DNA of 64,000 bases, taken from a virus (lineage: Duplodnaviria; Caudoviricetes). This document shows, one piece after another, positions 20,676 to 53,490 of the stretch. Both the position numbers and the translations under genes were made by a program. Where the stretch lies: the IMG/VR virus record IMGVR_UViG_3300021403_000004, positions 42,871 to 106,870 of that record; one strand, given 5' to 3'. The notes below the pieces were generated by a model. The model saw only the letters and a program-made list of their open reading frames with translations, made no database searches and was not told where the DNA came from. How positions within the stretch are numbered: position 1 is the stretch's first letter; each line of letters begins with the position of its first letter.

Positions 20676-20765
20676 GGGTGCACGGTCACCGACTCCATCA
20701 GCCGATCCTTTCAGCCTGAACGTTTCCGTGTTTTAACCGGAAGAGTACAGTTAAGGGTAGCGGGC

Positions 20766-21740
20766 CTAGTGCGGCTGCCCGCTGGGAGACAACACCTCCG
20801 AGCCGCAAAGGAGCTGATGGCAATGCTCGCCATCGCCGCGCTCGTGTTCTTCATCATCACCGCCGTCGTCGCGTGGGTAGACAAGACCATTTCGGTCCCG
20901 CACTTGATCGCCTTGACGGCCGTCGGCCTGGCCTTCCTCGCTGGTCACTTTATCTGGGGCTGGTGGGGCACCCGTACTGCTCCCTGACAGGGACCGCGGG
21001 CGTCCTGCAGCCTGGTCACCACGCGCACCCTGTAACCCGCGTCCGGGCAAGACCGTGCCCGCCTCGTCCCAGGGCGCCTCTTTCTTCGGCGTCCAGCAGG
21101 AGATCCCCGGCTCGGCATGCGCGTGGTAGTACGCCAGCTCAGCACTGAGGTTCGCGTAGTCCTCATGCCAGGCCAAATGGTCGGCAACGTACGGGAAGCC
21201 CGTGCGCACGGCGCTGAAGGAGTGGCAGCCGACGTCCATCATCGGGACGTGCACGGCCAGCGTGGTGTCCACGTCCGCGTGGAAGACGCCCGGCTCAACC
21301 TCGTTATCCCAGAAGTGGGCTTCCCAGCCGATCACGTTCTCGCGCTGGCTGTAATGCGCCGGGATGCGGTCAATCCGCAGGCCCAGCCCGGCCTTGTGAT
21401 AGCGCGGGTGCCTGCTGAGGACCTCAGCCAGGTGCCAGGGCCAGTCAAGGGGGCAGCCTTCCGACGGCACCACGTCGGGATCGGTGACGACGTACTTCTC
21501 CCGGGCGTTGGCTGCGCGGAACCAGCCCCGCGTCCACAGGTCACGCGGGTTGCCGCCGCCGTCGTCCACTACCCGGACCCCGGCTTTCTGCACGTCCCGG
21601 AGCCAGTCCACGGCCTCCGGCCAGGTCGTGCCGTGGTCAACGATGGTGGTCTCCAGGCCGGCCGCCTGCATGGCCGCGAGGCAGAGCCTGCCGTAGGTCA
21701 CCCTGTCCCGGAAGATGATGAAAGCGCGCAAGAGCGTCAC
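20766..21740 (-). CDS. Glycosyltransferase family 2-like; true end possibly 21016 via a TTA bypass
   Basis: IVDHGTT, YVVTDPD, K.GLGLRID, ADVDTTLA, HLAW motifs; C-terminal tail runs antisense over 20817-20987. Confidence 0.8.
   Translation of the reverse strand: MTLLRAFIIFRDRVTYGRLCLAAMQAAGLETTIVDHGTTWPEAVDWLRDVQKAGVRVVDDGGGNPRDLWTRGWFRAANAREKYVVTDPDVVPSEGCPLDWPWHLAEVLSRHPRYHKAGLGLRIDRIPAHYSQRENVIGWEAHFWDNEVEPGVFHADVDTTLAVHVPMMDVGCHSFSAVRTGFPYVADHLAWHEDYANLSAELAYYHAHAEPGISCWTPKKEAPWDEAGTVLPGRGLQGARGDQAAGRPRSLSGSSTGAPPAPDKVTSEEGQADGRQGDQVRDRNGLVYPRDDGGDDEEHERGDGEHCHQLLCGSEVLSPSGQPH
20817..20987 (+). CDS. 56-aa two-TM membrane protein (holin-like or superinfection exclusion)
   Basis: AAGGAG RBS; MAMLAIAALVFFIITAVVAW...LIALTAVGLAFLAGHF. 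Confidence 0.65.
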   Translation: MAMLAIAALVFFIITAVVAWVDKTISVPHLIALTAVGLAFLAGHFIWGWWGTRTAP

Positions 21741-21746
21741 AGCCTT

Positions 21747-22421
21747 TCAGGGATACTCCGGCCATCCGGGCTTCAGGTCGTAAACGGCAGGGTTAGCCTG
21801 CGACATCCAGGTCTCGGCCTGCCAGCGGTCCTCACTGGCCGGGGCCGGGAGCCGGCGCAGGTACGACGACGTGGCCCACCAGAAGTTGCCGCCGAAGAAC
21901 GGGGGGTCGCTCGGGTAGTGCTGGTTGTCCACCCAGTGGCAGCCCACGGCATCATGGCGGGCCAGCAGCGCCAGGCACTCTTCCCACTCGTAGATGACCT
22001 TGCGCGTCATCGACCTGCGCCAGGCCATGTTGGTGTCCGAGCCGTCCGCGGCGCCCTTGGTGTGCGCGTACACGACGGCGTACTCGTCCTGGGACTTCTG
22101 CACGTCATCGTGGATGGCCTGGAGCGTCAGCTGCTCCCAGCCCTCGTCAGCCTCGCGCCAGGCCGCCGGCTCGGGGAGGTCCCAGTTCCGGCACAGCAAG
22201 CCGATCCGCTGCCGGGCGGCGTCACGGTCTCGCGGCGGCCCCACCAGGCCGACCGTGGTGACCACGCCGTCAAGGCCCGAGCGGCCCATCGCGGTGAAGT
22301 GATCGCGTACCGGCACCGCCCAGGCGCCTGCCGCGTAACAATGATAGTAATGGCGCACCGGGAGGGCCGCCCGCAACCGCGCCTCCCGCTGGGCGCACTG
22401 GGCGCACGAGCTGCCCGTCAT
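21747..22421 (-). CDS. Glycosyltransferase-like protein
   Basis: E..TL..I, VYAHTKG, WRRSM, FFGGNFWWATSSYLRRL, R..AETW motifs. Confidence 0.75.
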   Translation of the reverse strand: MTGSSCAQCAQREARLRAALPVRHYYHCYAAGAWAVPVRDHFTAMGRSGLDGVVTTVGLVGPPRDRDAARQRIGLLCRNWDLPEPAAWREADEGWEQLTLQAIHDDVQKSQDEYAVVYAHTKGAADGSDTNMAWRRSMTRKVIYEWEECLALLARHDAVGCHWVDNQHYPSDPPFFGGNFWWATSSYLRRLPAPASEDRWQAETWMSQANPAVYDLKPGWPEYP

Positions 22422-23059
22422 CGCTGCTCCTGCCTGAACCGGGACGGCCACACGTCACTGGTCTCCTCGTCCACGCTCACGTACGGCACCCCGGCATCCA
22501 GCCACCGCTGCACGAGGTCCCAGTCCTCCGTCCAGGACGCGGGCCCCCAGGTGCCGTGCTCCAGGGCCCAGCGCCGGTGCATGATCATCGGCGTTCCCAC
22601 GTTCCCGCACGCCAGCGGCCCCCAGCCGGTGACCGTCTCGTGCGGGCCGCCGTGCGCCGTCATCCTGCTGACGGCGAAGCCTGCCTGCGGCGCGGCGTCC
22701 AGGGCCTTGGCCAGCAGCGCGCAGTGCCCCGGCCGCAATGCGTCGTCATCGTCACAGTAAGTAATGTACGTCCCGTGCGCTTCTTCCAGGCCGGCCAGCC
22801 GGGCATGGTGCCCCCAGTGCTCGCCCGCCGGGTGCTCCGGCAGCTCGCAGTAGCGGATGCCGTGCCAGCCGTTGCGCGCGACCTCGCCGCCCAGCCGGAA
22901 GGCCAGCTCGTCGTCTGGCCCGTCACTGACGATGACGTGCTCAGTGCCCGCCAGCGACTGCGCCTGCACGGACGGGATGCACCGCTCCAGGAGCAGGTCG
23001 TGGCGCCGGAACCAGGTGGGCGTGATGACGGTCACCGCAGGGCCGCTCATCCGGGCCAC
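22418..23059 (-). CDS. Glycosyltransferase family 2
   Basis: VTVITPT, VIVSDG, YITYCDDDD, EDWDL. Confidence 0.9.
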   Translation of the reverse strand: MARMSGPAVTVITPTWFRRHDLLLERCIPSVQAQSLAGTEHVIVSDGPDDELAFRLGGEVARNGWHGIRYCELPEHPAGEHWGHHARLAGLEEAHGTYITYCDDDDALRPGHCALLAKALDAAPQAGFAVSRMTAHGGPHETVTGWGPLACGNVGTPMIMHRRWALEHGTWGPASWTEDWDLVQRWLDAGVPYVSVDEETSDVWPSRFRQEQR

Positions 23060-23772
23060 CTGTCCGGGACGTTGATGCCGCGGTTGAACTCAGCTAGTGA
23101 CTGCGGGGTGAACGGCGTCCCGCCCAGCTTGGCGATATCGGCGTTCAGCTGCCCCCCGCGGCTGTAGGCGTGCCAGTTCTGCAGGTCGGCTGCCGTCAGC
23201 GCGTACGACGCTGCGTACGTCTGGTCATGGCCGGCCTTGCCGTTGGAGTAATGCAGGTGCTCGATGACCACGTCATCAAGGTAGGTGATCCCGCACGCGG
23301 TGCCCCAGGCGAACCAGGCCACGTCCACGTACATGTGGCTGATCGACGGCGCCCCTGCGTAGCCCAGTGCCTGCACCACCTCACTGCGCATGAAGACATG
23401 GCAGCTCATCGACCCCGGGTCGCGCGGGTACAGGTCGTTGCCGAACGCGAACGGGGTGCGCTGCAGGGCCTCCAGGATGCGGGCATCCCAGCCTGCCGTG
23501 CGCGGCACGTTGTCGTCACCCAGGCAGCCCACGGCCCGGTAGCCCGCGGCCCGGGGGACGGCCAGCTCGTTCGTCCAGGCCGTGACCTGGCGCAGCCCGG
23601 ATCGCACCTCGTACTCCACGCCCTGCAGGCGCGGGTACTGGCGCTCATCGTCATCGTCTAGGCCCACGGCCAGCGTGGTCGCCGCCGTGCACGTCTGCGC
23701 CATCGCCTGCGCCAGCCTGCTGACGCTCGCCGGACGCCCGCGGCTGGGCACGACGACCAGCAGGTCCCTCAT
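23047..23772 (-). CDS. Glycosyltransferase family 2-like (paralog of 25336-25998)
   Basis: VVVPSRGRP, GDD..PRT.GWD, H.Y.D, IEHLH. Confidence 0.85.
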   Translation of the reverse strand: MRDLLVVVPSRGRPASVSRLAQAMAQTCTAATTLAVGLDDDDERQYPRLQGVEYEVRSGLRQVTAWTNELAVPRAAGYRAVGCLGDDNVPRTAGWDARILEALQRTPFAFGNDLYPRDPGSMSCHVFMRSEVVQALGYAGAPSISHMYVDVAWFAWGTACGITYLDDVVIEHLHYSNGKAGHDQTYAASYALTAADLQNWHAYSRGGQLNADIAKLGGTPFTPQSLAEFNRGINVPDRWPG

Positions 23773-23778
23773 GGGGCT

Positions 23779-24006
23779 TCAACTAACCTTGTGCACGTTA
23801 ATGACTTGACTCCACGGAAGCACGCACGCATCCCAGGCCTCATCACCCACAGTAATAGCCGCGGTGGCTACACCGTGATTAAACAACTCCACATCCCCGA
23901 CAGGAAGAGTAACGCTCCCATCGGTCACGGTTACCAGCTCTACCGTCATCGCACCGCCCCACCATGCGGGGTACAGCTCGCTGAGCACGACTGGCGTGTC
24001 CGTCAT
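23779..24006 (-). CDS. Hypothetical protein
   Basis: 75 aa, lower GC, overlaps upstream stop. Confidence 0.5.
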   Translation of the reverse strand: MTDTPVVLSELYPAWWGGAMTVELVTVTDGSVTLPVGDVELFNHGVATAAITVGDEAWDACVLPWSQVINVHKVS

Positions 24007-24695
24007 TTCTCGCTCTCCTTGCCTAGTGCCGGGCTGCACACCCAGAATGACCTGTCTGGCGTCAGGTGCCCTGCGTACAGTACGGTCTCGATCCGGTACC
24101 CGAAGCCTTCCAGCAATGCATGGCACCGAAGACGGCTATTCATCTGCGCCACGAACGGGTACACGTCTGTATGATCCTCTATCAGCAATCTAGGCACGAA
24201 TTGCCGCAGCGTTGCCGCACCCCCCATGAGAACGCCGAGCTCGGCACCCTCCACGTCAATCTTCACCCAGTCCAGGCGCGTGATGTCGTGCTCCTGAGCT
24301 AGCTCATCCAGGGTGGAGAACACAGCCCCGTCAGGCGCATGATGCTCCGGGTACGGCATAGTATCCAAGGCAGTCCTGAATCCCGGCTCGTAGCCACCAG
24401 GAGCAGCAAGTGCCTCATGGATCACGACAAGCCGTGACACGTCCAGGCGGTTAGACTCGCACAACCGTACCAGCGTGCCCGTATACGCCACCGACGGGTC
24501 TACCGCGTACACCATCGCCCCGGCAGCCAGTGCCGGAATCGTGTAACTGCCGATATGGCAGCCGATGTCGATGACCACGTCACCAGGCCTCACGCGCCAG
24601 TGCGCCTGCCTTACCTCAGCCTCATCCTCGAACCAGCCTGTGATGTTTGGGTCATCGGGCAGCGTCACGTCCTGCTGCCCGTACGTCACGATCAT
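24003..24695 (-). CDS. FkbM-family methyltransferase
   Basis: VIDIGCHIG and WVKIDVEGAEL motifs. Confidence 0.9.
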   Translation of the reverse strand: MIVTYGQQDVTLPDDPNITGWFEDEAEVRQAHWRVRPGDVVIDIGCHIGSYTIPALAAGAMVYAVDPSVAYTGTLVRLCESNRLDVSRLVVIHEALAAPGGYEPGFRTALDTMPYPEHHAPDGAVFSTLDELAQEHDITRLDWVKIDVEGAELGVLMGGAATLRQFVPRLLIEDHTDVYPFVAQMNSRLRCHALLEGFGYRIETVLYAGHLTPDRSFWVCSPALGKESEK

Positions 24696-25336
24696 GACGA
24701 TCCCGCGATCACCGTCAGCCACGGGTAGGACGGCACCGGCGGGACCTTCTCCGCTGGCAGCGGGAAGCGCTCGGTCTTGAAGGTGTCAGCCGCGGAGGAC
24801 CGGTACCAGTACACCGGGTCGCCGGGCACCCAGGCCTGCTCCCGGCACCGGCCGCTCGCCCGCACCTTGTTGCTCCACTCGCGCTCGGCCCCGTTCCCGC
24901 CCTCCCAGGCCCCCAGGAGCGCGATCTCCCGGCGGATCGGGTTGAACTGGGTGATGTCCCTGGTCAGCATGTCATCCCGGTTCGTCCAGCCGGAGTGCAC
25001 GAGCGAGTGCTCCACCGGGGCCTCCAGCACGCCGTCCGTCGTCCAGCGCACCATGAAGCCCACGTAGTCGGGCTGCGCCTGCAGGGCGGCCATGACGCGG
25101 GCAACGCCATCGGGGGCCAGCAGGTCATCATCGTCAATGCAGGACACGTACTGCGCCCGGGACGCGTCCAGCAGCGCCTGCGTCTTGGCGCCGTAGGTGC
25201 TTTCCAGGTTGTCCCGGTACAGCAGCGCGCCGAATCCCGGCTGCCACTGCCGGTCCAGGTCCGCGAGCAGCTCCAGCAAGGTGGCGTGCCGGTGCGGGAT
25301 GGAGCAGATCAGGGCATCCCAGGTAACATCGCTCAT
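24692..25336 (-). CDS. Glycosyltransferase family 2-like
   Basis: LICS, G.K...LL, YVSCIDDDD motifs. Confidence 0.8.
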   Translation of the reverse strand: MSDVTWDALICSIPHRHATLLELLADLDRQWQPGFGALLYRDNLESTYGAKTQALLDASRAQYVSCIDDDDLLAPDGVARVMAALQAQPDYVGFMVRWTTDGVLEAPVEHSLVHSGWTNRDDMLTRDITQFNPIRREIALLGAWEGGNGAEREWSNKVRASGRCREQAWVPGDPVYWYRSSAADTFKTERFPLPAEKVPPVPSYPWLTVIAGSS

Positions 25337-25998
25337 CACAGCACCGCCTTGATCGCGCCGATGTCCTGCGCCAGCTGCCCCCGGCAGTACGCGCTGTACG
25401 CTGCCTGGCACTGCGGCCAGGACTGCTCCGCCCGCAGGTACGTCTCATCCAGCGGGGCCTTGCCGGACGAGTGGTGCAGGTGCTCAATGATGACATCGCC
25501 CAGGTACTCAATCCCGCACGCGGCACCCCAGGCACCCCAGGCGTCGTCCACGAACATGTGCGTGAGGGACGGGACGCCAAGGTAGCCAAGCGCCTGGACC
25601 ACTTCACTGCGCATGAAGGCGTGCGTCACCTGAGAGCCCTGCGGGCGCAGCGGGTACAGGTCGTTGGCGTAGGCAAACGGCTCCCGGCCCAGCGCGGCCA
25701 TGATCCTGGCATCCCAGCCGGGCGTCTGCGGCACGCAGTCATCGCCCAGCGCCCCGGTGAACCGGTACGTGCCCGCACGGGGAACCGCGAGCTCGTTCAC
25801 CCAGGGCGTGAAGCCGCGCAAGCCAGAGCGGACCTCGTACTCCACGCCCGCCAGGCGCTCGTAGCCGCCCTCGTCATCGCTGTCCAGGCCGACGACCAGC
25901 GTCGTGTCGCCCCGGCAGGTGGCGTCCATGGCCTCGCGCAGCCGGCGGACGTTCTGCGGGCGCCCCCGGCTCGGCACGACGACGACGAGGTCCCTCAT
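25336..25998 (-). CDS. Glycosyltransferase family 2-like (paralog of 23047-23772)
   Basis: VVVPSRGRP, GDD, HMFVDD, IEHLH. Confidence 0.85.
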   Translation of the reverse strand: MRDLVVVVPSRGRPQNVRRLREAMDATCRGDTTLVVGLDSDDEGGYERLAGVEYEVRSGLRGFTPWVNELAVPRAGTYRFTGALGDDCVPQTPGWDARIMAALGREPFAYANDLYPLRPQGSQVTHAFMRSEVVQALGYLGVPSLTHMFVDDAWGAWGAACGIEYLGDVIIEHLHHSSGKAPLDETYLRAEQSWPQCQAAYSAYCRGQLAQDIGAIKAVL

Positions 25999-26357
25999 AT
26001 CAGCCTGTCCGCCGCGGCCAGCCGGACCGTGTCGCCCTCGTACCCCTCACCCGACCGCGGCCCGCGGGTGAACACCAGGCACGTGCAGTCCTCCAGGGCC
26101 TCCCAGGCGTGCGCGACCCCCGGCAGCTCGCAGGCCATGTCACCCGGGCCGTACGCGCGGTCCTGCACCAGCCCTTCCTCGTCCCTGGTGACGATGCGCA
26201 GCCGCCCGCGGACCACGTACGTCCACTGGGTGGTCTGGGCATGCACGTGATTACCGCGGATGGACCCGGCCCAGCTGACGATCCGGGTCACGGAGTCCAG
26301 TGGCGTGACCAGGAGGTCCTCAATCAGGCCACGCCCGTCAGCAAAGCTGCTAGGCAT
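25995..26357 (-). CDS. Cupin-fold NDP-sugar isomerase/epimerase
   Basis: F.DGRG.IEDL...GSIRGNH.H...PGVAHA...RGPRSG..YE.DT. Confidence 0.8.
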   Translation of the reverse strand: MPSSFADGRGLIEDLLVTPLDSVTRIVSWAGSIRGNHVHAQTTQWTYVVRGRLRIVTRDEEGLVQDRAYGPGDMACELPGVAHAWEALEDCTCLVFTRGPRSGEGYEGDTVRLAAADRLI

Positions 26358-27480
26358 CAATGACCTCCGGGCTCGGGAGCGGGATGATGAACGCGCCCCT
26401 GTAGCCTGCCGCCCGCAGCTTCGGCATGATGTCGCCGGCAAGGTGCCAGGACAGCAGGAGCGCGTACCCCGGCTGGTCTTCCGTCAGCCGCTTCTCGTCT
26501 GCGACGGGAATTTGCGTGCCCGGGATCAGCGTGCCGATCTTCTCGCTGCCTGGCACCTCGCACACGAGCGTGATGAACCTGGCGATCCCGGCGTAGTGGA
26601 TGAGCGGCGTGGCACGGGTGGCGGCGCCAATGCCGTACACGGACTTCTTCTCCAGGTGAACGGCCCTCCACAGCATGCCGCGCAGTGCCGCGGCGGCGCC
26701 CTCGGCGCGGAACTGCCAGCCCGGCCGCTGCACGCGCGCGCGCATCCGGAATGACCCGCCGTGCACCGGCACCTGCCGGGAGCTGGTCACCCGCATCCCG
26801 TGCCGTTCCAGCAAGGCGCTCAGTGACGCCACCGAGTAATAGCGCAAGTGCTCATGATAAATGGCGTCGACCTGAAGGCCCTCGGTAATGCTCGCCAGGT
26901 CATGGTTCTCCGTGATGAATTCCCCGCCCTCGCCAAGCAGGAGCTGCACGCCATCCAGGAAGTCATGCGGGTCGGGCACGTGCGCGAGGACATTGCACGC
27001 CGTGATGACCGCGGCCGGGCCGTGGTCCTCACGGATCTTCCTGGCCAGTTCCGCGGAGAAGAACTCCTGGTAGCGGATGATTCCCGGGCCGCATTTCAGG
27101 ACCTGGCCGGTAGGCTCGACAGCGGCTTTCCGCAAGCCAGGACCGGGATAGCTGCCCAGCAGCGTCCCGTCATTGGCCCCGATGTCGATGACGAGGTCAT
27201 CCAGGAACAGGGATGAGGCCAGTGAGCTCGCCAGGTCGGCGTAATGCCGCCGCAAGGCTGCGGAGTTACCTGTCGCGTAAGGGTGGTCGGGGCGGAACAG
27301 CTCTTCCTGGCTCACGGTGTGGCTCAGCTGCACGAGCGTGCAGTTACCGCATCGCACGAGCGCGAGCGGGTACCGGGCACTGGCGCTCATGCGCTCGGCG
27401 AGGGGCTGGCGGCCCATGCTGAACAAGGGCCGCAGGCTGGCTGAGCCACAGCCGCCGCATGCCGTGACCTCACCGTCCAC
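26350..27480 (-). CDS. NDP-hexose C-methyltransferase family
   Basis: CxxC...G.QPLA...C..C.LVQL; VIDIGANDG; NVLAH; IYHEHL.YYS; HGGS; LLLSW. Confidence 0.9.
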   Translation of the reverse strand: MDGEVTACGGCGSASLRPLFSMGRQPLAERMSASARYPLALVRCGNCTLVQLSHTVSQEELFRPDHPYATGNSAALRRHYADLASSLASSLFLDDLVIDIGANDGTLLGSYPGPGLRKAAVEPTGQVLKCGPGIIRYQEFFSAELARKIREDHGPAAVITACNVLAHVPDPHDFLDGVQLLLGEGGEFITENHDLASITEGLQVDAIYHEHLRYYSVASLSALLERHGMRVTSSRQVPVHGGSFRMRARVQRPGWQFRAEGAAAALRGMLWRAVHLEKKSVYGIGAATRATPLIHYAGIARFITLVCEVPGSEKIGTLIPGTQIPVADEKRLTEDQPGYALLLSWHLAGDIMPKLRAAGYRGAFIIPLPSPEVIDA

Positions 27481-28015
27481 TATCGCTCCTGCGATGCAGG
27501 TAATTATGCTCTGCCGGAGACAGCCAGATGCAGTTACCTGGCTCGTAATCACCATCAGTGTCCAACCGGTGCAGGTGCCAGTAAGGAGCTGGTGACGGCC
27601 CCATGTCAGCCAGGAAATTCGGGAATCCATCACGTCCGGTCCAGCGGGCGCACACCTTAATGCCGCGCCCCCCGTAACGGGCGTAGGACTTATTGGCCGG
27701 GTCTTCACAGCGTCGGCGCACGCCCTGCCATAGCGTGTAGTTCGGATGATGACTGAGTCCGTGCCTGAACTGCATGCCAGACGTCCGGCAATGCTCCGCG
27801 ACTTTCCTGGCCTTCAGGCACCCGCATGACTTCCGGTGACCACTCCGCAAGCTTGCGCCCGGAGCCACGACGACAGCGCCACAGGCGCACTCGCAACGGT
27901 AAGTCCTGTACCCGTTTTTACTCCCTGCGTACTCCAGCACGGTCAGCAGCCCGTAAGCATCTCCCGGCTTAACTGACGGCGGCCGTCCGCGACCGATACC
28001 ACGCGACGCCGTCAC
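27470..28015 (-). CDS. HNH-type homing endonuclease
   Basis: YG.LTV...CECACG...LRSG..KSCGC; RC...YGGRGIKVC.RW...FLADMG...G.YEPGNC.W. Confidence 0.85.
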   Translation of the reverse strand: MTASRGIGRGRPPSVKPGDAYGLLTVLEYAGSKNGYRTYRCECACGAVVVAPGASLRSGHRKSCGCLKARKVAEHCRTSGMQFRHGLSHHPNYTLWQGVRRRCEDPANKSYARYGGRGIKVCARWTGRDGFPNFLADMGPSPAPYWHLHRLDTDGDYEPGNCIWLSPAEHNYLHRRSDSGR

Positions 28016-28971
28016 TTCGGGTGCTCCCGGTACCAATCGAGAACCGGCCCTATACCTCGTGCTAGTGAGACTTTCGGGCTGTACCCGAGAGCACTGATCT
28101 TACTGATGTCAGGGCACCGCCGCGGAGGACTGCCCGCCGGAAGCACCCCGGGCGTTATCTTCACGTCTCTGTTGTAGTGCGCACCGATAAGGGAGACCAG
28201 CTCTGCGATCGTTCTTTCCTCCGGGGTCCCCACGTGATAGATCCCGCTGGGCGTGCTCTCATCGAGAAGGAGCGCGAGCGCATCCGTGCAATCTGAGATG
28301 TGGCAGAACGCCCGGGTTTCCTGGCCTGTGCCCTGAATCGGAAACCGGATCACCCCTGCTCCCGGGTTCGCGTCAAGCAATGTGCTGATCCGGCGGCCGA
28401 ACTCCGGGATCACGTGCTCGTAACCCCCGTCATTTCCGTAGACGTTGTGCGGGCGCGCGATGACGACCCGGTCCAGCACGCCCGTCCGCGCCCAGGCCAG
28501 GGCCATCAGCTCGCAGGCGATCTTCCCGCCGCCATAGGAGTACCGCGGGTTCTCCACGTCCGGCACCACCAGCGGGACGCTCTCGGGCGTGGGCACCTGG
28601 CGGGCCACCTGGTAGGCCTCAGAAGAGGACACCAGCAGCAGGCTCGCGGTGCCCGTCGCCTCGCACGCCGTGAGCACGTTCAGCATGCCCCGGATGGCCA
28701 CGTCCAGCACCTGGCGCGGCTCAGCATAGAACGTCTGCGTGCCCTGCAGGTACGCCAGGTGCGCGACCGCCTCGCAGCCCGCCATCGCATCACGGACGGC
28801 GGCGGCATCGCGCACGTCACCCTGCAGGACCTCGCAGTTCACGCCCTCCAGGCGATCCTGGCGCCCGCGGGACATGTCATCCAGGACGCGGACCTCATGA
28901 CCGTCCGCTGCCAGGCGCCGGACGAGGTCACTGCCCACGAAGCCGGCCCCGCCAGTCACCAGGTAGCGCAT
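28012..28971 (-). CDS. NAD-dependent NDP-sugar epimerase/dehydratase (extended SDR)
   Basis: LVTGGAGFVG, SSSE.Y, YGGGK, RPHNVYG motifs. Confidence 0.92.
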   Translation of the reverse strand: MRYLVTGGAGFVGSDLVRRLAADGHEVRVLDDMSRGRQDRLEGVNCEVLQGDVRDAAAVRDAMAGCEAVAHLAYLQGTQTFYAEPRQVLDVAIRGMLNVLTACEATGTASLLLVSSSEAYQVARQVPTPESVPLVVPDVENPRYSYGGGKIACELMALAWARTGVLDRVVIARPHNVYGNDGGYEHVIPEFGRRISTLLDANPGAGVIRFPIQGTGQETRAFCHISDCTDALALLLDESTPSGIYHVGTPEERTIAELVSLIGAHYNRDVKITPGVLPAGSPPRRCPDISKISALGYSPKVSLARGIGPVLDWYREHPK

Positions 28972-48131: not shown

Positions 48132-48229
48132 TTAATGCCAGGGGATGGCCCTCGGGCTGCTTGATGACTTGCGGACAGCACGCGAACTGTCCTGAACACC
48201 GAGAACGTCAGCAGCGGTGAGCACGCAAG

Positions 48230-48298
48230 CACCCCTGCCAGGAGTCGAACCTGGCGGCTGGATTTAGGAAACCCGGCGCCGGGTCCGCCGGCAGGGGC
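48230..48298 (-). tRNA. tRNA-Arg(CCT), reduced D arm
   Basis: GCCCCTG/CAGGGGT acceptor; loop TTCCTAA; GGTTCGACTCC. Confidence 0.8.
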
Positions 48299-48299
48299 C

Positions 48300-48374
48300 T
48301 GGAGTCGCGCCCGGGAGTCGAACCCGGCTTCGCACGGTTTGCAATCGTGCCCCCGCGCCAGCGAGACGCGCGAC
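48300..48374 (-). tRNA. tRNA-Cys(GCA)
   Basis: Loop TTGCAAA; U73 and encoded CCA. Confidence 0.88.
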
Positions 48375-48375
48375 A

Positions 48376-48447
48376 TGGTGTCCCCGTCCGGAGTCGGACC
48401 GGATAGCATTCCTTCGGAGGGAAGGCAGCAGGTCCGCTGCCAGGGAC
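48376..48447 (-). tRNA. tRNA-Arg(CCG)
   Basis: TTCC CTCCGAA GGAA; encoded CCA. Confidence 0.8.
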
Positions 48448-48448
48448 A

Positions 48449-48523
48449 GGAGCCCCTGTCCGATTCGAACGGGTACTCCATTGCCAGCCGCGCGGCCAGC
48501 GGAGACCAATCCAGGGTAGGGGC
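48449..48523 (-). ncRNA. tRNA-like element with a 19-nt anticodon loop
   Basis: GCCCCT/AGGGGC acceptor, TTCGAAT T loop; CTCCG [CTGGC CGCGCGG CTGGC AA] TGGAG. Confidence 0.6.
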
Positions 48524-48533
48524 CTGAACACAG

Positions 48534-48615
48534 TGCGCGACATAGGATTCGAACCTACTCAGCCATAGCACCTGATTTACAGTCAGGTTCCGCTCGCCAT
48601 CTCGGACGATCGCGC
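48534..48615 (-). tRNA. tRNA-Tyr(GTA)
   Basis: CCTGA CTGTAAA TCAGG; variable arm. Confidence 0.9.
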
Positions 48616-48618
48616 AAG

Positions 48619-48718
48619 GAGGGTTTCCGCGGCCATTGAACCCGGCAGGTCACGGCTGGCTGCGGTTCGCGGGGCCGGGAGCCTGCCTGAGTCCGGCGTG
48701 CCGCACGAGGATGCCCTC
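48619..48718 (-). ncRNA. Candidate long hairpin ncRNA
   Basis: Nested pairings GAGGG/CCCTC, GCGGC/GCCGC, GGACTC/GGGTTC, GGCAGG/CCTGCC. Confidence 0.5.
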
Positions 48719-48737
48719 AACCCCGGCTATTCAAGAG

Positions 48738-48811
48738 GGTGATCACCCGGGTTCGATCCGGGACTTTCAGAGTCACAGTCTGACGTGCAGGGCCACTACA
48801 CCATGACCACC
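48738..48811 (-). tRNA. tRNA-His(GTG) with G-1
   Basis: TCAGA CTGTGAC TCTGA; GGTGGTCA/TGATCACC. Confidence 0.9.
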
Positions 48812-48829
48812 ATGAGCGCTTGCGCGCTG

Positions 48830-48902
48830 TACACGGAGTGGGACTCGAACCCACGATACCCTGTTTGTAGGACAGGAGCCTTAGCCGCTAGACGACCCGT
48901 GC
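48830..48902 (-). tRNA. tRNA-Val(TAC), C33
   Basis: CCTGT CCTACAA ACAGG. Confidence 0.88.
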
Positions 48903-48950
48903 ATGAACACTCCGGTCACTTGCTGATGACGCCCCCGGAACCAGGCTCCA

Positions 48951-49025
48951 TGGTACAGTCACCGGGATTCGAACCCGAAATAAGAGATTCGTAGTCTCTC
49001 GTGATATCCGTTTCACCATGACTGC
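48951..49025 (-). tRNA. tRNA-Arg(ACG)
   Basis: AGAGA CTACGAA TCTCT; encoded CCA. Confidence 0.92.
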
Positions 49026-49026
49026 G

Positions 49027-49099
49027 CGCTGATGAAGAGAATCGAACTCTCGGCCCTCCGCTCGACAGGCGGACGCTCTAACCCCTGAGCTACACCAGC
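49027..49099 (-). tRNA. tRNA-Asp(GTC)
   Basis: TCCGC CTGTCGA GCGGA. Confidence 0.9.
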
Positions 49100-49107
49100 T
49101 TGCTAGC

Positions 49108-49701
49108 TTACTCAACGTCTTTATATGTAAGCCTACGTTTTATCATCGATACCGCAGTCCGTGAAATATCATACCGGGCACCGATATCTCGTGTTGTACC
49201 ACTTGCTAGGCGAATTTCACGCACCTGATCTTCCGTCAGGGTGGAATTACCCGACCTTACGCCTGACACCCCTGGATTTGGTATGCCCTGATTTACAGCC
49301 GACAAGCGGTGACGCGCTTCTTCAGACCATATGCGGTCTTTTCCGCCGACACCGTGACTACCGGAGACCGCGTTAAGCAAATTAGTCCCCGGTATCTTGA
49401 ACAGGAGATCTGTCCAATATTCCTCAGCTTTCCAGCGGTCAGCTACGCACACTTCCTGCACTACCAGAAATTGAGGTGGTTCCGGCAACGTCACCAGCCA
49501 CCCGGCCACGTGAGTTGATTTAGCGAAACGGCTCGCCCAGTGCAGCCGAACACGCTCCTGCGCACCTAGTTTAGTGGAGCCAACATACCGGATGGCGTCT
49601 CTATCAAACAGTACGTAAATATCAGCCATGTCTTGTGCATGACGCTTGCGTAGCCACTCTTGCTGATAGGTACGCCGCATCTTAGAATCTGCATAGGGCA
49701 C
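49108..49701 (-). CDS. GIY-YIG homing endonuclease with NUMOD3/HTH tail, inside the tRNA operon
   Basis: IYVL...RYVGST; E..W...LLN; SEEARHRLS; LTEDQVREIR HTH; lower GC; TATACT -10. Confidence 0.8.
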   Translation of the reverse strand: MPYADSKMRRTYQQEWLRKRHAQDMADIYVLFDRDAIRYVGSTKLGAQERVRLHWASRFAKSTHVAGWLVTLPEPPQFLVVQEVCVADRWKAEEYWTDLLFKIPGTNLLNAVSGSHGVGGKDRIWSEEARHRLSAVNQGIPNPGVSGVRSGNSTLTEDQVREIRLASGTTRDIGARYDISRTAVSMIKRRLTYKDVE

Positions 49702-49717
49702 CTACCCAGTATACCTG

Positions 49718-49788
49718 CTCTCCCACCTGGATTCGAACCAGAATTAAATGGTTAACAGCCATCCGTTCTGCCGTTGAACTATAGGAGA
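49718..49788 (-). tRNA. tRNA-Asn(GTT)
   Basis: GATGG CTGTTAA CCATT. Confidence 0.92.
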
Positions 49789-49825
49789 TTAGTGCCCGAT
49801 TATAGCCTCGGAGCCAGGCTGGCAG

Positions 49826-49899
49826 TGGCGGAGGCGTGATTCGAACACGCGATCTTCAGGTTATGAGCCTGACGAGGTACCTAGCTCCTCTACTCCGCA
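49826..49899 (-). tRNA. tRNA-Met(CAT), initiator-like
   Basis: TCAGG CTCATAA CCTGA; 1:72 mismatch. Confidence 0.88.
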
Positions 49900-49900
49900 G

Positions 49901-49971
49901 TCGTCCTACAGGGATTCGAACCCTGTTCTCAGCCTTGAAAGGGCTGGGGCCTACCTATAGCCGATAGGACG
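49901..49971 (-). tRNA. tRNA-Glu(TTC)
   Basis: CAGCC CTTTCAA GGCTG. Confidence 0.9.
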
Positions 49972-49975
49972 CGAG

Positions 49976-50048
49976 CGCTCGCACCGGGGCTTGAACCCGG
50001 GATCTCCTGCTTGAGGGGCAGGCGACTTCACCGCTTGTCCACGCGAGC
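49976..50048 (-). tRNA. tRNA-Glu(CTC), C33
   Basis: CCTGC CCCTCAA GCAGG. Confidence 0.88.
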
Positions 50049-50052
50049 TCAG

Positions 50053-50122
50053 CACAGCGCCAGGGAGTCGAACCCTGTTTCCGCGGCTTAGAAGACCGCT
50101 GCACGTATCCGCCGTGCGCTGC
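50053..50122 (-). tRNA. tRNA-Arg(TCT), reduced D arm
   Basis: GCGGT CTTCTAA GCCGC. Confidence 0.85.
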
Positions 50123-50123
50123 A

Positions 50124-50198
50124 TGGTGCCTCCGTGGGGACTCGAACCCCAGTACGCGGGGTAAAAGCCCGCTGTCCTTGCCGCTAAACGACAGAGGC
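50124..50198 (-). tRNA. tRNA-Lys(TTT)
   Basis: GCGGG CTTTTAC CCCGC; encoded CCA. Confidence 0.9.
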
Positions 50199-50203
50199 GC
50201 GAG

Positions 50204-50274
50204 TCGGGATACCGGGTGCCGCCCCCGGGTGACTGGCTTATGAGACCAGCGGTTTACTGTTAGCCTATATCCCA
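50204..50274 (-). tRNA. tRNA-CAT (elongator Met or Ile2), atypical T loop
   Basis: CTGGT CTCATAA GCCAG; T loop GGCGGCA. Confidence 0.75.
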
Positions 50275-50275
50275 G

Positions 50276-50347
50276 TGGGATCGCAGGGAATCGAACCCTG
50301 ATCACGTCCTTATAAGAGGCGCATCCTCACCATTAAACGACGATCCA
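50276..50347 (-). tRNA. tRNA-Ile(TAT)
   Basis: Loop CTTATAA; GGTTCGATTCC. Confidence 0.85.
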
Positions 50348-50348
50348 G

Positions 50349-50425
50349 TCGTACGGGAAGGACTTGAACCTTCGTGTCACCAGTTACCCTTTCGGCTCCT
50401 TATCAGGGAGAGGGGATACCGTACG
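50349..50425 (-). tRNA. Rewired tRNA-Ile(GAT) with the D-loop 3' of the anticodon arm
   Basis: CGTACGG TA TCCCCT CTCC-CTGATAA-GGAG CCGAA AGGG TAACTGGTGACAC GAAGG-TTCAAGT-CCTTC CCGTACG A. Confidence 0.75.
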
Positions 50426-50429
50426 CACG

Positions 50430-50513
50430 AGGAAGAACGACGAGTCGAACGCCACGGGTCACCCCGCGATCCGCTTTCAAGGCGGTCCCAGGCACCGGCC
50501 TGGATGATCTTCC
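50430..50513 (-). tRNA. tRNA-Ser(TGA), 8/4-type fold
   Basis: CCGC CTTGAAA GCGG; long variable arm; 4-bp T stem. Confidence 0.85.
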
Positions 50514-50520
50514 GGAAGAA

Positions 50521-50611
50521 CTCAGTGCCCCACCCGGGGAGCGCCCGGCCACGGGTACCTAGGATCACGCGGAATTGAACCGCGCCGCCAGGACTTGAAC
50601 CTGTCACTGAG
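50521..50611 (-). ncRNA. Double-T-loop tRNA-sized RNA without an anticodon arm
   Basis: CTCAGTG/CACTGAG closing stem; CAGG-TTCAAGT-CCTG and GCGCGG-TTCAATT-CCGCGT in tandem. Confidence 0.7.
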
Positions 50612-50615
50612 AAAG

Positions 50616-50700
50616 CAGAAGGCGGAGGGCACGATCCCCAGGGCTGTCACGCCCCCGGCTCGCTAGCAACGAGTGCCTGGCCCCGCCAGGTTCGCCTTCC
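50616..50700 (-). tRNA. tRNA-Ser(GCT), 8/4-type fold
   Basis: CTCG TTGCTAG CGAG; GGAAGGCG/CGCCTTCT acceptor. Confidence 0.82.
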
Positions 50701-50701
50701 A

Positions 50702-50778
50702 TGGTACCCCAGGCGGGATTCGAACCCGCAGCATCGCCGGATCTGAACCGGAGTGGTCGGCCAGTTGCCTACCGGGGC
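50702..50778 (-). tRNA. tRNA-Leu(CAG), short variable region
   Basis: CCGG TTCAGAT CCGG; encoded CCA. Confidence 0.88.
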
Positions 50779-50779
50779 A

Positions 50780-50855
50780 TGGAGTAGATGACGGGACTCG
50801 AACCCGCAACCATTACCTTGGCAAGGTAATACGCTACCAATTGCGCCACATCTAC
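50780..50855 (-). tRNA. tRNA-Gly(GCC)
   Basis: TTACC TTGCCAA GGTAA; U73, CCA. Confidence 0.93.
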
Positions 50856-50859
50856 GCAG

Positions 50860-50930
50860 AGCGAGCGACGGGAATCGGACCCGCGCCTCGACCTTGGGAA
50901 GGTCACGTGCTGCCATTGCACCACGCTCGC
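50860..50930 (-). tRNA. tRNA-Gly(CCC)
   Basis: TGACC TTCCCAA GGTCG. Confidence 0.9.
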
Positions 50931-50932
50931 AT

Positions 50933-51025
50933 GACAGGAACGGGCAGCTAATCCGCCGGGATTCCGGAACTCCCGATTGCGCCGCTTCCGCCGGTAAGAG
51001 CCTTTGCGCTAGCGCTTTTCCTGCC
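50933..51025 (-). ncRNA. Candidate structured ncRNA
   Basis: GGCAGGAA/TTCCTGTC closing stem, GCTAG/TTAGC, CGGGA/TCCCG hairpin. Confidence 0.5.
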
Positions 51026-51026
51026 G

Positions 51027-51100
51027 AGCCTGACGCCGGATTCGAACCGGCGACCCTCGCCTTACCACGGCGATGCTCTCACCACTGGAGCTAGTCAGGC
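51027..51100 (-). tRNA. tRNA-Thr(GGT)
   Basis: TCGCC GTGGTAA GGCGA. Confidence 0.9.
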
Positions 51101-51102
51101 AG

Positions 51103-51170
51103 AGCCGCGATCCGGTGCCGGCCCGGACCTGCTTCCTTACAAGGGAAGCGTCACAGCCGTGTGCCGCGGC
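51103..51170 (-). tRNA. tRNA-Thr(TGT), minimal D arm and atypical T loop
   Basis: CTTCC CTTGTAA GGAAG; T loop GCCGGCA. Confidence 0.75.
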
Positions 51171-51174
51171 ATTG

Positions 51175-51247
51175 CTGTCCGCCCAGGACTCGAACCTGGA
51201 ATCGCCGGGACCAAAACCCGGAGAGCTGCCTGTTGCCCTAGCGGACA
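51175..51247 (-). tRNA. tRNA-Gln(TTG)
   Basis: CCGGG TTTTGGT CCCGG. Confidence 0.88.
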
Positions 51248-51252
51248 CTGCT

Positions 51253-51306
51253 GCTGCCATTATCACGTTGACAGGTCTCCCTGCTTTCGGGGTCGTTCTA
51301 GGCAGC
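51253..51306 (-). ncRNA. Candidate small ncRNA
   Basis: GCTGCC/GGCAGC closing stem and CAGG-GAGA-CCTG GNRA hairpin. Confidence 0.4.
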
Positions 51307-51322
51307 TTCATGACTGTCCCCG

Positions 51323-51403
51323 TGCGCGAGGCGGGAATCGAACCCGCAAGACCGAGGTCGCTGCCTCCTCAAGGCAGTGCGTTTACCGTTTCACCACTCA
51401 CGC
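51323..51403 (-). tRNA. tRNA-Leu(GAG)
   Basis: CTGCC TTGAGGA GGCAG; variable arm. Confidence 0.9.
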
Positions 51404-51407
51404 AAGG

Positions 51408-51478
51408 CTTCCCTTCAAGGACTCGAACCTCAATCGCCAGAGTCAGATTCTGGCATCCTGCCATTAGACGAAAGGGAA
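51408..51478 (-). tRNA. tRNA-Gln(CTG)
   Basis: CCAGA ATCTGAC TCTGG. Confidence 0.9.
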
Positions 51479-51484
51479 TTAAAG

Positions 51485-51558
51485 TGCGCAGCCCGGGATT
51501 CGAACCCGGAGCATCACTGGTTTTGGGCCAGCGTGGTCGGCCAGTTGCCTAGCCGCGC
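51485..51558 (-). tRNA. tRNA-Leu(CAA), C33, short variable region
   Basis: GCTGG CCCAAAA CCAGT; D arm identical to Leu(CAG). Confidence 0.85.
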
Positions 51559-51562
51559 AGGA

Positions 51563-51637
51563 GCAGCAGTTTCATGCTCCCGGTACTTCAGGACTGATCG
51601 GGCCCTGGTTGCCGGGACGAGCAGTGCCCCCGCTGCC
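51563..51637 (-). ncRNA. Candidate hairpin ncRNA with a loop-E-like internal loop
   Basis: GCAGCGG/CTGCTGC, TCCCGG/CCGGGA, CAGGGC/GTCCTG; internal loop CAAC/AAGTA. Confidence 0.5.
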
Positions 51638-51650
51638 GGGCATGCCTGCG

Positions 51651-51724
51651 TGCGCCGCGAGGGACTTGAACCCCCAACTCCCGACTTAAGAGGACGGTAC
51701 TCTAACCAGTTGAGTTAGCGGCAC
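51651..51724 (-). tRNA. tRNA-Lys(CTT)
   Basis: Loop CTCTTAA; canonical D and T arms. Confidence 0.9.
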
Positions 51725-51830
51725 GTAGTTGTTGCACATATTCACGTCTTGCATCTTTACAGTCATCACATTTTGGCGGCCCACAAAGGGCTGCGGTCCC
51801 CTTGCAGTCCCGCAGTGGCCTCGCGAGCAG

Positions 51831-51899
51831 AGCCTGACCTCAGAATCGGACTGAGCGATCTTCCCGTACGAAGGGACGACGTGACCCAGCACGTCAGGC
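51831..51899 (-). tRNA. tRNA-Thr(CGT), minimal D arm
   Basis: TCCC TTCGTAC GGGA; GCCTGAC/GTCAGGC. Confidence 0.78.
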
Positions 51900-51950
51900 A
51901 TGAAGCTCGTCCCGGTTGGGCGCGCGATGGCTTATTGAGGACGAGCTCCG

Positions 51951-52021
51951 AAGGGCAGGCGGGAATCGAACCCGCATCTTCTGCTTGGAAGGCAGAGGGC
52001 CTGCCATTAACTGACTGCCCC
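51951..52021 (-). tRNA. tRNA-Gly(TCC)
   Basis: TCTGC CTTCCAA GCAGA. Confidence 0.9.
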
Positions 52022-52030
52022 GTAAAAAGC

Positions 52031-52107
52031 GACCGGACTGCACCCGCAAAACGGTGCGGAAGCCAGGACTGCTTGCAGTTGCGACTTATCTCCTTTGCAG
52101 TCCAGCC
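52031..52107 (-). ncRNA. Candidate structured ncRNA
   Basis: 12-bp closing stem GGCTGGACTGCA/TGCAGTCCGGTC with internal stems. Confidence 0.55.
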
Positions 52108-52109
52108 GG

Positions 52110-52183
52110 TGCCTGCTCCCTGGATCGAACAGGGGGCCTCTGCATTTTCAGTGCAACGCTCATTCCGACTGAGCTAAGCAGGC
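52110..52183 (-). tRNA. tRNA-Phe(GAA)
   Basis: TTGCA CTGAAAA TGCAG. Confidence 0.9.
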
Positions 52184-52263
52184 ATGCGGGCGCTGTTTTT
52201 CCGCGGCGCCTAGAAGGCCGCGCCCGGTCTTGCGTCCCTCCCTCCGGAGGGAACCGCTTTCCC

Positions 52264-52406
52264 GCTGGTGTGCTGTTACGCCAGGGCAGTGCGCCGTTTG
52301 CCTTCCCGCCCGCCAGCGTCTGCACTGTCACCGCGCAGGCCCTCAGACAAGAAGCGGCATGACCGCGCTCTTTCAAGGATGGCTGCCTTTAAGCCCACCT
52401 TCCAGC
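52264..52406 (-). ncRNA. 23S rRNA H43/H44 (L11-binding, GTPase-associated centre) mimic RNA with an 86-nt insertion
   Basis: GCTGG AAGGTGGGCTTAAAGGCAGCCATCCTTGAAAGAG [86 nt] GCGTAACAGCACA CCAGC aligns to 23S nt ~1051-1108 with compensatory changes. Confidence 0.82.
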
Positions 52407-52410
52407 CGGG

Positions 52411-52483
52411 TCGGGTACCCCTGAGTCGAACAGGGTGCTTCCTGCTCCCAAAGCAGGCGGGTTAACCGTCTCCCTCGTACCCG
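52411..52483 (-). tRNA. tRNA-Pro(TGG)
   Basis: CCTGC TTTGGGA GCAGG. Confidence 0.88.
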
Positions 52484-52521
52484 TCATGCCTTAGCCAGGC
52501 CTTTCAGCCCATGAAGCCGAG

Positions 52522-52593
52522 TCGGGCACCCCTGAATCGAACAGGGTCTCTCCTGCATCCCGAGCAGGCAGATTGCCATCTTCCCCGTACCCG
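52522..52593 (-). tRNA. tRNA-Pro(GGG), C33
   Basis: CCTGC TCGGGAT GCAGG. Confidence 0.85.
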
Positions 52594-52597
52594 AAAG

Positions 52598-52669
52598 TCA
52601 GCCCCCCGGGAGTCGAACCCGGTTTCTCCTCGATCCGAACGAGGCAGATTACCGTCTTCCTCGAAGCTG
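52598..52669 (-). tRNA. tRNA-Pro(CGG)
   Basis: CCTCG TTCGGAT CGAGG. Confidence 0.88.
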
Positions 52670-52675
52670 GCGACG

Positions 52676-52747
52676 TGGAGACTGAGGGAATCGAACCCTC
52701 TGCGTCAACGCTTGCAAAGCGCGACCGCTGCCTTAGCTGTAATCCCC
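52676..52747 (-). tRNA. tRNA-Ala(TGC)
   Basis: Loop TTTGCAA; G3:U70. Confidence 0.85.
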
Positions 52748-52752
52748 GTGCG

Positions 52753-52825
52753 TGGAACCTGCGAGGCTTGAACTCGCGACCTCGTGCGTGCCACGCACGT
52801 GCTCTCCCAGCTGAGCTAAGGCCCC
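52753..52825 (-). tRNA. tRNA-Ala(GGC)
   Basis: CGTGC GTGGCAC GCACG; G3:U70. Confidence 0.92.
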
Positions 52826-52892
52826 ATCTGCCCAGGCGGGCCCGGTCGAGCAGGCGCATGCGCGCCCTCCCGCGGTCCCTGGGCAATGCTCA

Positions 52893-52932
52893 CCACTGTT
52901 GAGTTCTCAAGTAAGCCCCCGTCATGCGGGGA
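52893..52932 (-). promoter_or_regulatory. rrn-type boxB hairpin plus boxA antitermination signal
   Basis: CCCCG-CATGA-CGGGG followed by CTTGAGAACTCAACAG, as in actinobacterial rRNA leaders. Confidence 0.75.
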
Positions 52933-52934
52933 AG

Positions 52935-53006
52935 CTGGCCGCCGAGGAATCGAACCCCGACCAAGAGGTTTGGAAGCTCTTGTGCTTGCCGTTACACCAG
53001 CAGCCA
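52935..53006 (-). tRNA. tRNA-Trp(CCA)
   Basis: Loop TTCCAAA; canonical D and T arms. Confidence 0.88.
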
Positions 53007-53279: not shown

Positions 53280-53480
53280 GTGACGGCGCCCTGCCATTAG
53301 GCCATGTCCCGGTGTACTGGACGGGACAGCGGGAATCGAACCCGCACGTCCGGCACGCAAGTGCGCAATGCGATCGTGCCCGGAGGGGAAGAAGCTGAAG
53401 CTGCAGCAATACGACGAAGACGATGCTGGCCAGCCACGCGATGGGCCGGGCGGACAAGGAAGCTGAAGCTGCGCTGTGTC
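53280..53480 (-). ncRNA. YrlA/Y-RNA-like permuted tRNA domain (copy 2) with a long 5' extension
   Basis: GCGGG-TTCGATT-CCCGC, TGTCCCG-loop-CGGGACA, GCC-TAATGGCAG-GGC; two GCAGCTTCAGCTTC repeats upstream; TGATACGCT promoter at 53485-53493; ends approximate. Confidence 0.7.
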
Positions 53481-53490
53481 CGTTAGCGTA

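Follow-up and report, generated by a model that had tools for sequence, protein, structure and literature searches.

The virus record under study is a contig of 106,870 bases, 69% complete, with genes for capsid, portal and prohead protease, and the window analysed here is a stretch of 64,000 nucleotides within it. It derives from a tailed soil phage, probably one of an actinomycete; the host is suggested by three DUF397 genes, found among the 118 of 133 predicted proteins that were scanned, and by the 67% GC content of the record. The minus strand of the window carries a tRNA array (48229-53006) with 29 tRNAs called by ARAGORN and one match to the tRNA-Sec family (50431-50513, 50.8 bits, above the gathering score) that ARAGORN did not call. 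Embedded in this array, on the same strand, is an element of 143 bases (52264-52406) that resembles 23S rRNA's GTPase-associated center (GAC). It begins 3 nt behind tRNA-Pro(TGG) (52409-52483), directly upstream, and is separated from tRNA-Phe (52108-52183) by a second structured element.

This second element (52186-52260, minus strand) consists of a GC stem that surrounds a small hairpin, and its 5' end may take part in a pseudoknot. It is conserved in a related locus, L450 (about 1708-1780), where it follows a tRNA-Pro. It has no Rfam match, and a pattern scan of the collection returned no loci, missing even L450, its known carrier. At the head of the array (53288-53478, minus strand) we also noted a weak match to YrlA, a Y RNA-like family (53288-53346, 21.6 bits, E 0.13), in a region covered by RNA contigs from two soil metatranscriptomes, X1 and X3; no Ro60/TROVE gene was found in the one record searched, itself 69% complete. 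Ahead of the array, a candidate -10 hexamer (53485-53490, minus strand) was spotted by eye and is absent from the promoter scan; it lies 7 nt before the start of an X1 RNA contig (53478), a start seen in one study only, since the X3 contig stops at 53462. Elsewhere in the window, a cluster of glycosyltransferase, methyltransferase, cupin and NAD-dependent epimerase genes (19626-28971, minus strand) lies beside virion genes.

The sequence quoted for the GAC-like element in an earlier note on this DNA was confirmed at its position. In E. coli numbering, used throughout, its ends correspond to 23S nucleotides 1051-1090 (52406-52367) and 1091-1108 (52281-52264), and a structured insert of 85 nt (52366-52282; 86 if the 1090 equivalent is included) lies between them. 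The 5' half comprises the 5' strand of the H42 tip, H43, the 1082-1086 turn and A1088, while the 3' half holds H44 and the closing strand. Between 1051:1108 and 1092:1099, 14 rRNA pairs are formed by Watson-Crick partners, U1060/A1088, U1082/A1086, G1071 and C1072 are present, and 49 of the 58 core bases are identical to the nearest rRNA sampled. The equivalents of A1067 and A1095 are kept, as had been noted, at 52390 and 52277. The H43 loop (1065-1073 equivalents, 52392-52384, with G1071 and C1072 at 52386 and 52385) deviates from rRNA by a G at 1070 and an A at 1068. The earlier note had read the stem differences from E. coli as compensatory changes that reveal selection. The pairs are indeed Watson-Crick, but bacterial rRNA itself most often has G1058-C1080 (G at 1058 in 66% of 114 bacterial sequences), so the change at this pair is not in itself evidence of selection.

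A matrix of the 5' half scored the element at 43.6 bits, against 0.9 for the runner-up in the record and 10.9 for the best of 50 shuffled genomes, and the 5' half was also matched by the model R1 at E 2.8e-12, although the training set of this model included the window. The Rfam model of the large-subunit rRNA (RF02541) found no rRNA elsewhere in the record (0/1; positive controls 13/14 genomes), which bears out the claim that no flanking rRNA is present. The element itself matched nothing in Rfam at the gathering threshold or at E<=10, and free-energy folding of the element alone did not rise above shuffles (z -0.36).

Words of the region occur in eight soil metatranscriptome runs, of which four were examined in detail; all eight are from 2018 soil, may represent one campaign or the source sample itself, and may include DNA carry-over. 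Contigs of two studies, from X1 (50653-52909) and X3 (51888-52938), bridge the element and the neighbouring tRNAs with no differences or gaps, X5 covers just 52334-52578 and X7 yielded scraps only. In X1 and X3 most of the coding flanks have no cover, which proves nothing. The bridging contigs fit a tRNA-type precursor, and they do not show strand, ends or level.

We searched for the element in other viral genomes. The 5'-half pattern returned 119 viral loci, 85 of them distinct, two of these being true rRNA pieces. In a reciprocal test, 120 viral loci were picked by the 3' half alone, out of about 400 estimated in the collection: the 5' half lay upstream in 103 of them, and downstream and reverse-strand controls gave 0/120. 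When genome contigs were considered, 39 of 72 3'-half loci had the 5' half upstream, and 19 of these 39 have at least three tRNAs nearby. The family set analysed below consists of 153 representatives below 85% identity, obtained with a matrix filter that favours rRNA-like 5' halves. Four "phage" records carrying the motif (L085, L098, L124 and L125) turned out to be plain 23S rRNA and were excluded, and in a further candidate (L451) the match was short and due to chance. A covariance model built on the 5' half matches all 50 carrier records, which were found largely by the same motif, and none of 33 other tRNA-bearing phage records. Both halves are present, unannotated, in the cultured Pseudomonas phages pf16 and UNO-G1W1 and in Xanthomonas phage XacN1, and further cultured phages have 5'-half matches.

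Members often lie close to tRNA genes: among the 101 representatives with enough flanking sequence, a tRNA occurs within 300 nt in 65, in every case on the strand of the element and often within 12 nt. In XacN1 (L122), the element lies directly behind a 2'-5' RNA ligase gene, and no tRNA is found closer than 2.5 kb. The 5' half occurs a second time 0.3-3.8 kb from the first copy in five genomes (G009, G021, G028, G037 and G049), and at the opposite end of the record in another (G047).

The alignment of the representatives shows covariation at secondary and tertiary contacts. The top covarying columns, in an analysis not corrected for descent, were 1058:1080, the base of the insert, the closing stem 1047-1055, 1055:1104, 1082:1086 and 1057:1081; MIp reached 1.51 for 1058:1080 and 0.73 for 1082:1086, with a shuffled maximum of 0.147. 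An independent count over 53 distinct 5' halves, likewise not descent-corrected, gave 97.3% paired cells, a value reached in 0/500 shuffles. Positions 1082 and 1086 are UA in 88 of the 153 representatives, CG in 39, CA in 14 and AU in 10, and base 1056 tracks them (GUA in 59, ACG in 32). This coupled pattern is one that distinguishes bacterial from eukaryotic rRNA. In the ribosome, 1082 and 1086 are described as forming a tertiary pair of the trans Watson-Crick type, which is U-A in E. coli, while Haloarcula has C-G (PMC2952862, as far as accessible). U1060/A1088 occur in 153/153 representatives and the base triples 1071/1091/1100 and 1072/1092/1099 in 150 and 152, counts in which the search patterns fix part of the columns in one half of the set. 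Since covariation extends to the tertiary 1082-1086 pair, and since U1060/A1088 and the triples are essentially invariant, selection acts on the tertiary fold. The alignment predicts, with near certainty, that the RNA takes up the H43/H44 tertiary fold and that the insert projects from H44 as an arm. Family-wide covariation, found across the 153 representatives, upholds the central claim of the earlier note, a stand-alone H43/H44 mimic under selection. The note had nevertheless overlooked two properties of the family: the kink-turn for L10 is lost, and the insert is an arm with a conserved junction in nearly all members.

Indeed, the junction of the insert is near-invariant across the family, whereas its length ranges from 27 to 369 nt. 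Among 126 loci anchored on the 5' half, 117 have an insert-type 3' half, eight have short flanks and only L083 is insert-less. The latter (L083:290-350) is a 58-nt member with a C1090-G1101 pair, located just before a tRNA-Met on a 190-kb phage contig, and constitutes a natural minimal version. The window member and two relatives, L450 and L453, have homologous 85-nt inserts. All three retain a hairpin with a 7-nt loop (52320-52338 in the window), in which four of six stem positions are changed on both sides, thus in a compensatory manner. At the base of the insert (helix 52366-52363 with 52286-52289), the usual U-U and G-U are replaced in this lineage by C-C and, in two of the three, G-C; these variants suggest that the insert helix starts directly after A1088 and that U-G before 1091 replaces 1089-1090. 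No motif is universal to the inserts of the family; a hairpin motif near the 3' end, a 7-mer, recurs in 32/153 representatives and another motif pair in 15-23, pointing to insert subfamilies.

We then compared the bases that are kept with those that are relaxed, taking 114 rRNA sequences as the reference. To reduce bias from the search patterns, 5' positions were scored in 78 members retrieved through the 3' half, and 3' positions in 74 members retrieved through the 5' half. Because most of 1070-1104 is fixed by the rRNA pattern, a fair comparison is confined to 1039-1069 and to positions from 1105 on. According to the accessible part of a structural account (PMC1802607), the C-terminal domain of uL11 contacts 1058-60, 1062-65, 1075-83 and 1088, and the thiostrepton pocket is formed by 1067, 1069, 1070, 1073, 1095-98 and 1100. 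The bases of the C-domain face are retained in 67-78 of 78 members: G1059-C1079, G1063-C1075 and A1077 are present in 76-77, while adjacent pairs covary freely, and C1064 (73/78) and U1065 (68/78) are somewhat relaxed. U1061 is retained in 42/78 and replaced by A in 33%, U1061A being reported, in the same part of that account, as a stabilising change (PMC1802607). The exposed tip is looser. A1067 is found in 61/78 members versus 113/114 rRNAs (p 9e-7), the 17 others having mostly G, so that 1067 is still a purine in 76/78; G1068 is kept in 57/78, A1095 in 67/74 and A1096 in 54/74. Finally, the kink-turn 42 signature, which L10(L12)4 requires according to the sections consulted of PMC4538822, is present in one of 153 members versus 110 of 114 rRNAs, and a Watson-Crick stem takes its place. 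With the C-domain face kept, the tip relaxed and the kink-turn lost, the RNA looks tuned to its fold and to the C-domain of uL11; thiopeptides seem to matter less, and it does not look adapted to L10 or to a place within the ribosome. The retained bases are also those that the fold requires, and thus give no proof of a protein partner.

If uL11 is the partner, it would have to come from the host, because no uL11 gene was found in any of the 50 carriers, a set that includes 31 with a completeness of 90% or more (positive controls 14/14). RelA/SpoT synthetase genes were likewise absent from the 50 carriers. Carriers do not avoid UAG (92 of 745 stops, compared with 74 of 556 for the controls; p 0.89), nor are recoded genomes in excess among them (3/48 versus 1/30), both counts resting on crude gene calls in pieces of 20 kb; in the genome studied here, TAG ends 22 of 89 genes.

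All together, these observations suggest how the element may work. It would be made with the tRNAs and excised from the tRNA precursor, 3' processing of tRNA-Pro yielding its 5' end, and the released RNA would fold like the uL11-binding domain of 23S rRNA. Binding of host uL11 through the C-domain of the protein is, in our judgement, probable. What such binding would achieve is a more tentative matter. The explanation that we favour, although we give it somewhat less than an even chance, is that the element is a non-coding phage RNA acting as a uL11 decoy that damps Rel-dependent ppGpp: ribosomes would be left short of uL11 and ppGpp synthesis would weaken during infection, the gain being a blunted stringent response at times when uncharged tRNA from the phage swamps the cell or when the host cuts tRNA. 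Titration of uL11 with a damped stringent response was among the proposals of the earlier note, and we consider it plausible. Expression of this rRNA fragment reportedly titrates L11 in E. coli, a result attributed to Van Dyke in 2002. RelA activation and RelA-dependent ppGpp require L11 (PMC13448080, in the portion consulted). However, uL11 also serves RF1 (again in the consulted part of PMC1802607), yet carriers keep UAG stops, which counts against bulk depletion of uL11. Moreover, an RNA without the L10 site has to compete for uL11 with ribosomes, which offer the protein a more complete binding context. An insert would be superfluous in a simple sponge, so the decoy leaves the conserved junction unexplained, and the persistence of A1095 and of a purine at 1067 also counts against it. 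De-repression of L11-regulated synthesis, proposed in the earlier note, fails on other grounds: the accessible text of PMC3616713 has L1, not L11, repressing the rplK-rplA operon.

The near-obligatory insert with its conserved junction and compensatory stems would be explained if the RNA were a scaffold. Its GAC-like head, probably carrying uL11, would then bring in translation GTPases or tRNA elbows away from the ribosome, with the insert serving as the working arm. The recurring insert motifs, including the 7-mer, also favour this, as does the purine at 1067, where the base stacks on the tRNA elbow (PMC5829649). bL12-like matches point the same way, being found in 11/50 carriers versus 0/33 controls (p 0.003), but the association is weak when restricted to 17 size-matched controls of at least 110 kb (p 0.053), the bL12 genes are far from the RNA, and the record studied here has no bL12 match, nor one to uL11. 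Since, in addition, inserts vary widely in length with no motif common to all, L083 does without one, and no sarcin-ricin loop accompanies the element, we hold a scaffold to be possible but unlikely. Phage tRNAs may serve to counter defences that cut tRNA, and an element sitting among tRNA genes might by the same logic lure a host defence effector whose target, to be recognised or cut, is the GTPase centre or the complex that it forms with uL11. Its patchy distribution (0/33 other tRNA-bearing phage records, positive control 50/50) would agree with this, and variation of the exposed tip bases could reflect an arms race. Such a bait should track the host sequence, yet 32/153 members have A1056/C1082/G1086, a combination that, to our knowledge, bacterial rRNA does not use, and no described anti-phage effector against H43/H44 appeared among the literature search results listed; we regard this explanation as rather doubtful. 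An RNA free of any protein partner, in which the fold is just a compact, nuclease-resistant clamp for the insert, is less probable still. The conserved bases are largely what the tertiary fold requires, the stabilising U1061A is common and a long paired closing stem replaces the kink-turn, all of which would suit a clamp; but the identities on the uL11 face hardly vary while their neighbours covary freely, and L083 is a head with nothing to clamp.

Two further explanations appear very improbable. The core match of 49 bases in 58 could betray a decayed rRNA scrap, or a piece of rRNA with a spliced-out intron. Group I introns as a rule follow U and end in G, and the insert usually does the same. 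Covariation across the 153 representatives and inserts as short as 27 nt speak against these ideas; no intron family was matched in the 20 loci scanned or in the window, so that no group I intron core was recognised in the insert, removal of the insert from the window member would leave C1090 opposite A1101, and both bridging RNA contigs retain it (contigs drop rare forms). The absorption of thiopeptides, another suggestion of the earlier note, is the least credible of all: the window member does retain A1067 and A1095 and its host is probably an actinomycete, but A1067 is altered in 17/78 members, mostly to G, a change that affects thiostrepton binding (PMC4042851), and the family also occurs in Pseudomonas and Xanthomonas phages.

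The closest known relative of the family is the 23S GAC itself, the 58-nt uL11/thiostrepton domain (E. coli 1051-1108), with which the element shares all helices, the H44 loop, A1084/A1085, U1060/A1088, the 1071 and 1072 triple bases and the 1082-1086 pair. It differs in being free-standing in a phage tRNA array, in the 85-nt insert in H44 that interrupts the 1088-1091 strand, in the lack of kink-turn 42, in an A replacing U at 1101 and in the relaxed tip bases. GOLLD and ROOL RNAs are linked to tRNA clusters as well. They too are structured phage or bacterial RNAs whose function is described as unknown in the consulted part of PMC12286853, but the element is much shorter and built on an rRNA domain, and neither it nor 20 family loci matched any Rfam family, these two included. 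Leaders of ribosomal protein operons, L10(L12)4 for rplJL and L1 for rplKA, are likewise extra-ribosomal copies of ribosomal protein sites (PMC4538822 and PMC3616713, in part). These leaders act in cis ahead of ribosomal protein genes, whereas the element lies between tRNA genes in carriers that have no uL11 gene, and it lacks the kink-turn that the L10(L12)4 leader needs; no uL11-binding leader was found in those parts of the literature on ribosomal protein leaders that were consulted. Phages also encode ribosomal proteins of the stalk base, bL12 and, in cyanophage PhiMa05, uL11 (PMC13157829, in part), but here the stalk-base part is RNA. We found no description of the family in the literature covered, from which subscription journals are mostly missing. 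The text and four supplementary files of Fremin 2023 (PMC10690425) gave no match, although the family may be an unnamed candidate in the alignment archives of that study, and the main text of the Minerva preprint mentions neither L11 nor 23S. As judged from its sequence, the family is a categorically new kind of element, predicted to work like the 23S GAC and yet neither rRNA, nor a ribosomal protein leader, nor an Rfam family.

On balance, we lean slightly towards the view that these phages have turned the stalk base into an independent RNA gene: a GTPase-centre module loaded with uL11 and fitted with a swappable arm, which would be made together with the phage tRNAs and reprogram host translation control off the ribosome, be it the stringent response, factor handling or tRNA handling. 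Known rRNA mimics are cis-acting leaders in ribosomal protein mRNAs; if the module exists as proposed, it would open a new class of rRNA mimics, ones that act in trans. Hundreds of phage contigs, and cultured phages as well, carry the family; were it indeed a free viral RNA modelled on one of the ribosome's functional centres, phages would have a new means of steering host translation or the stringent response. The family also amounts to a natural mutagenesis of a textbook RNA fold, indicating the bases required outside the ribosome and the site that accepts an added arm. What the window contributes is a lineage probably of actinomycete phages, whose junction variant is informative, together with RNA-library cover and negative results for UAG avoidance and phage uL11. 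The cultured carriers pf16 and UNO-G1W1, which grow on laboratory hosts, make the family directly testable.
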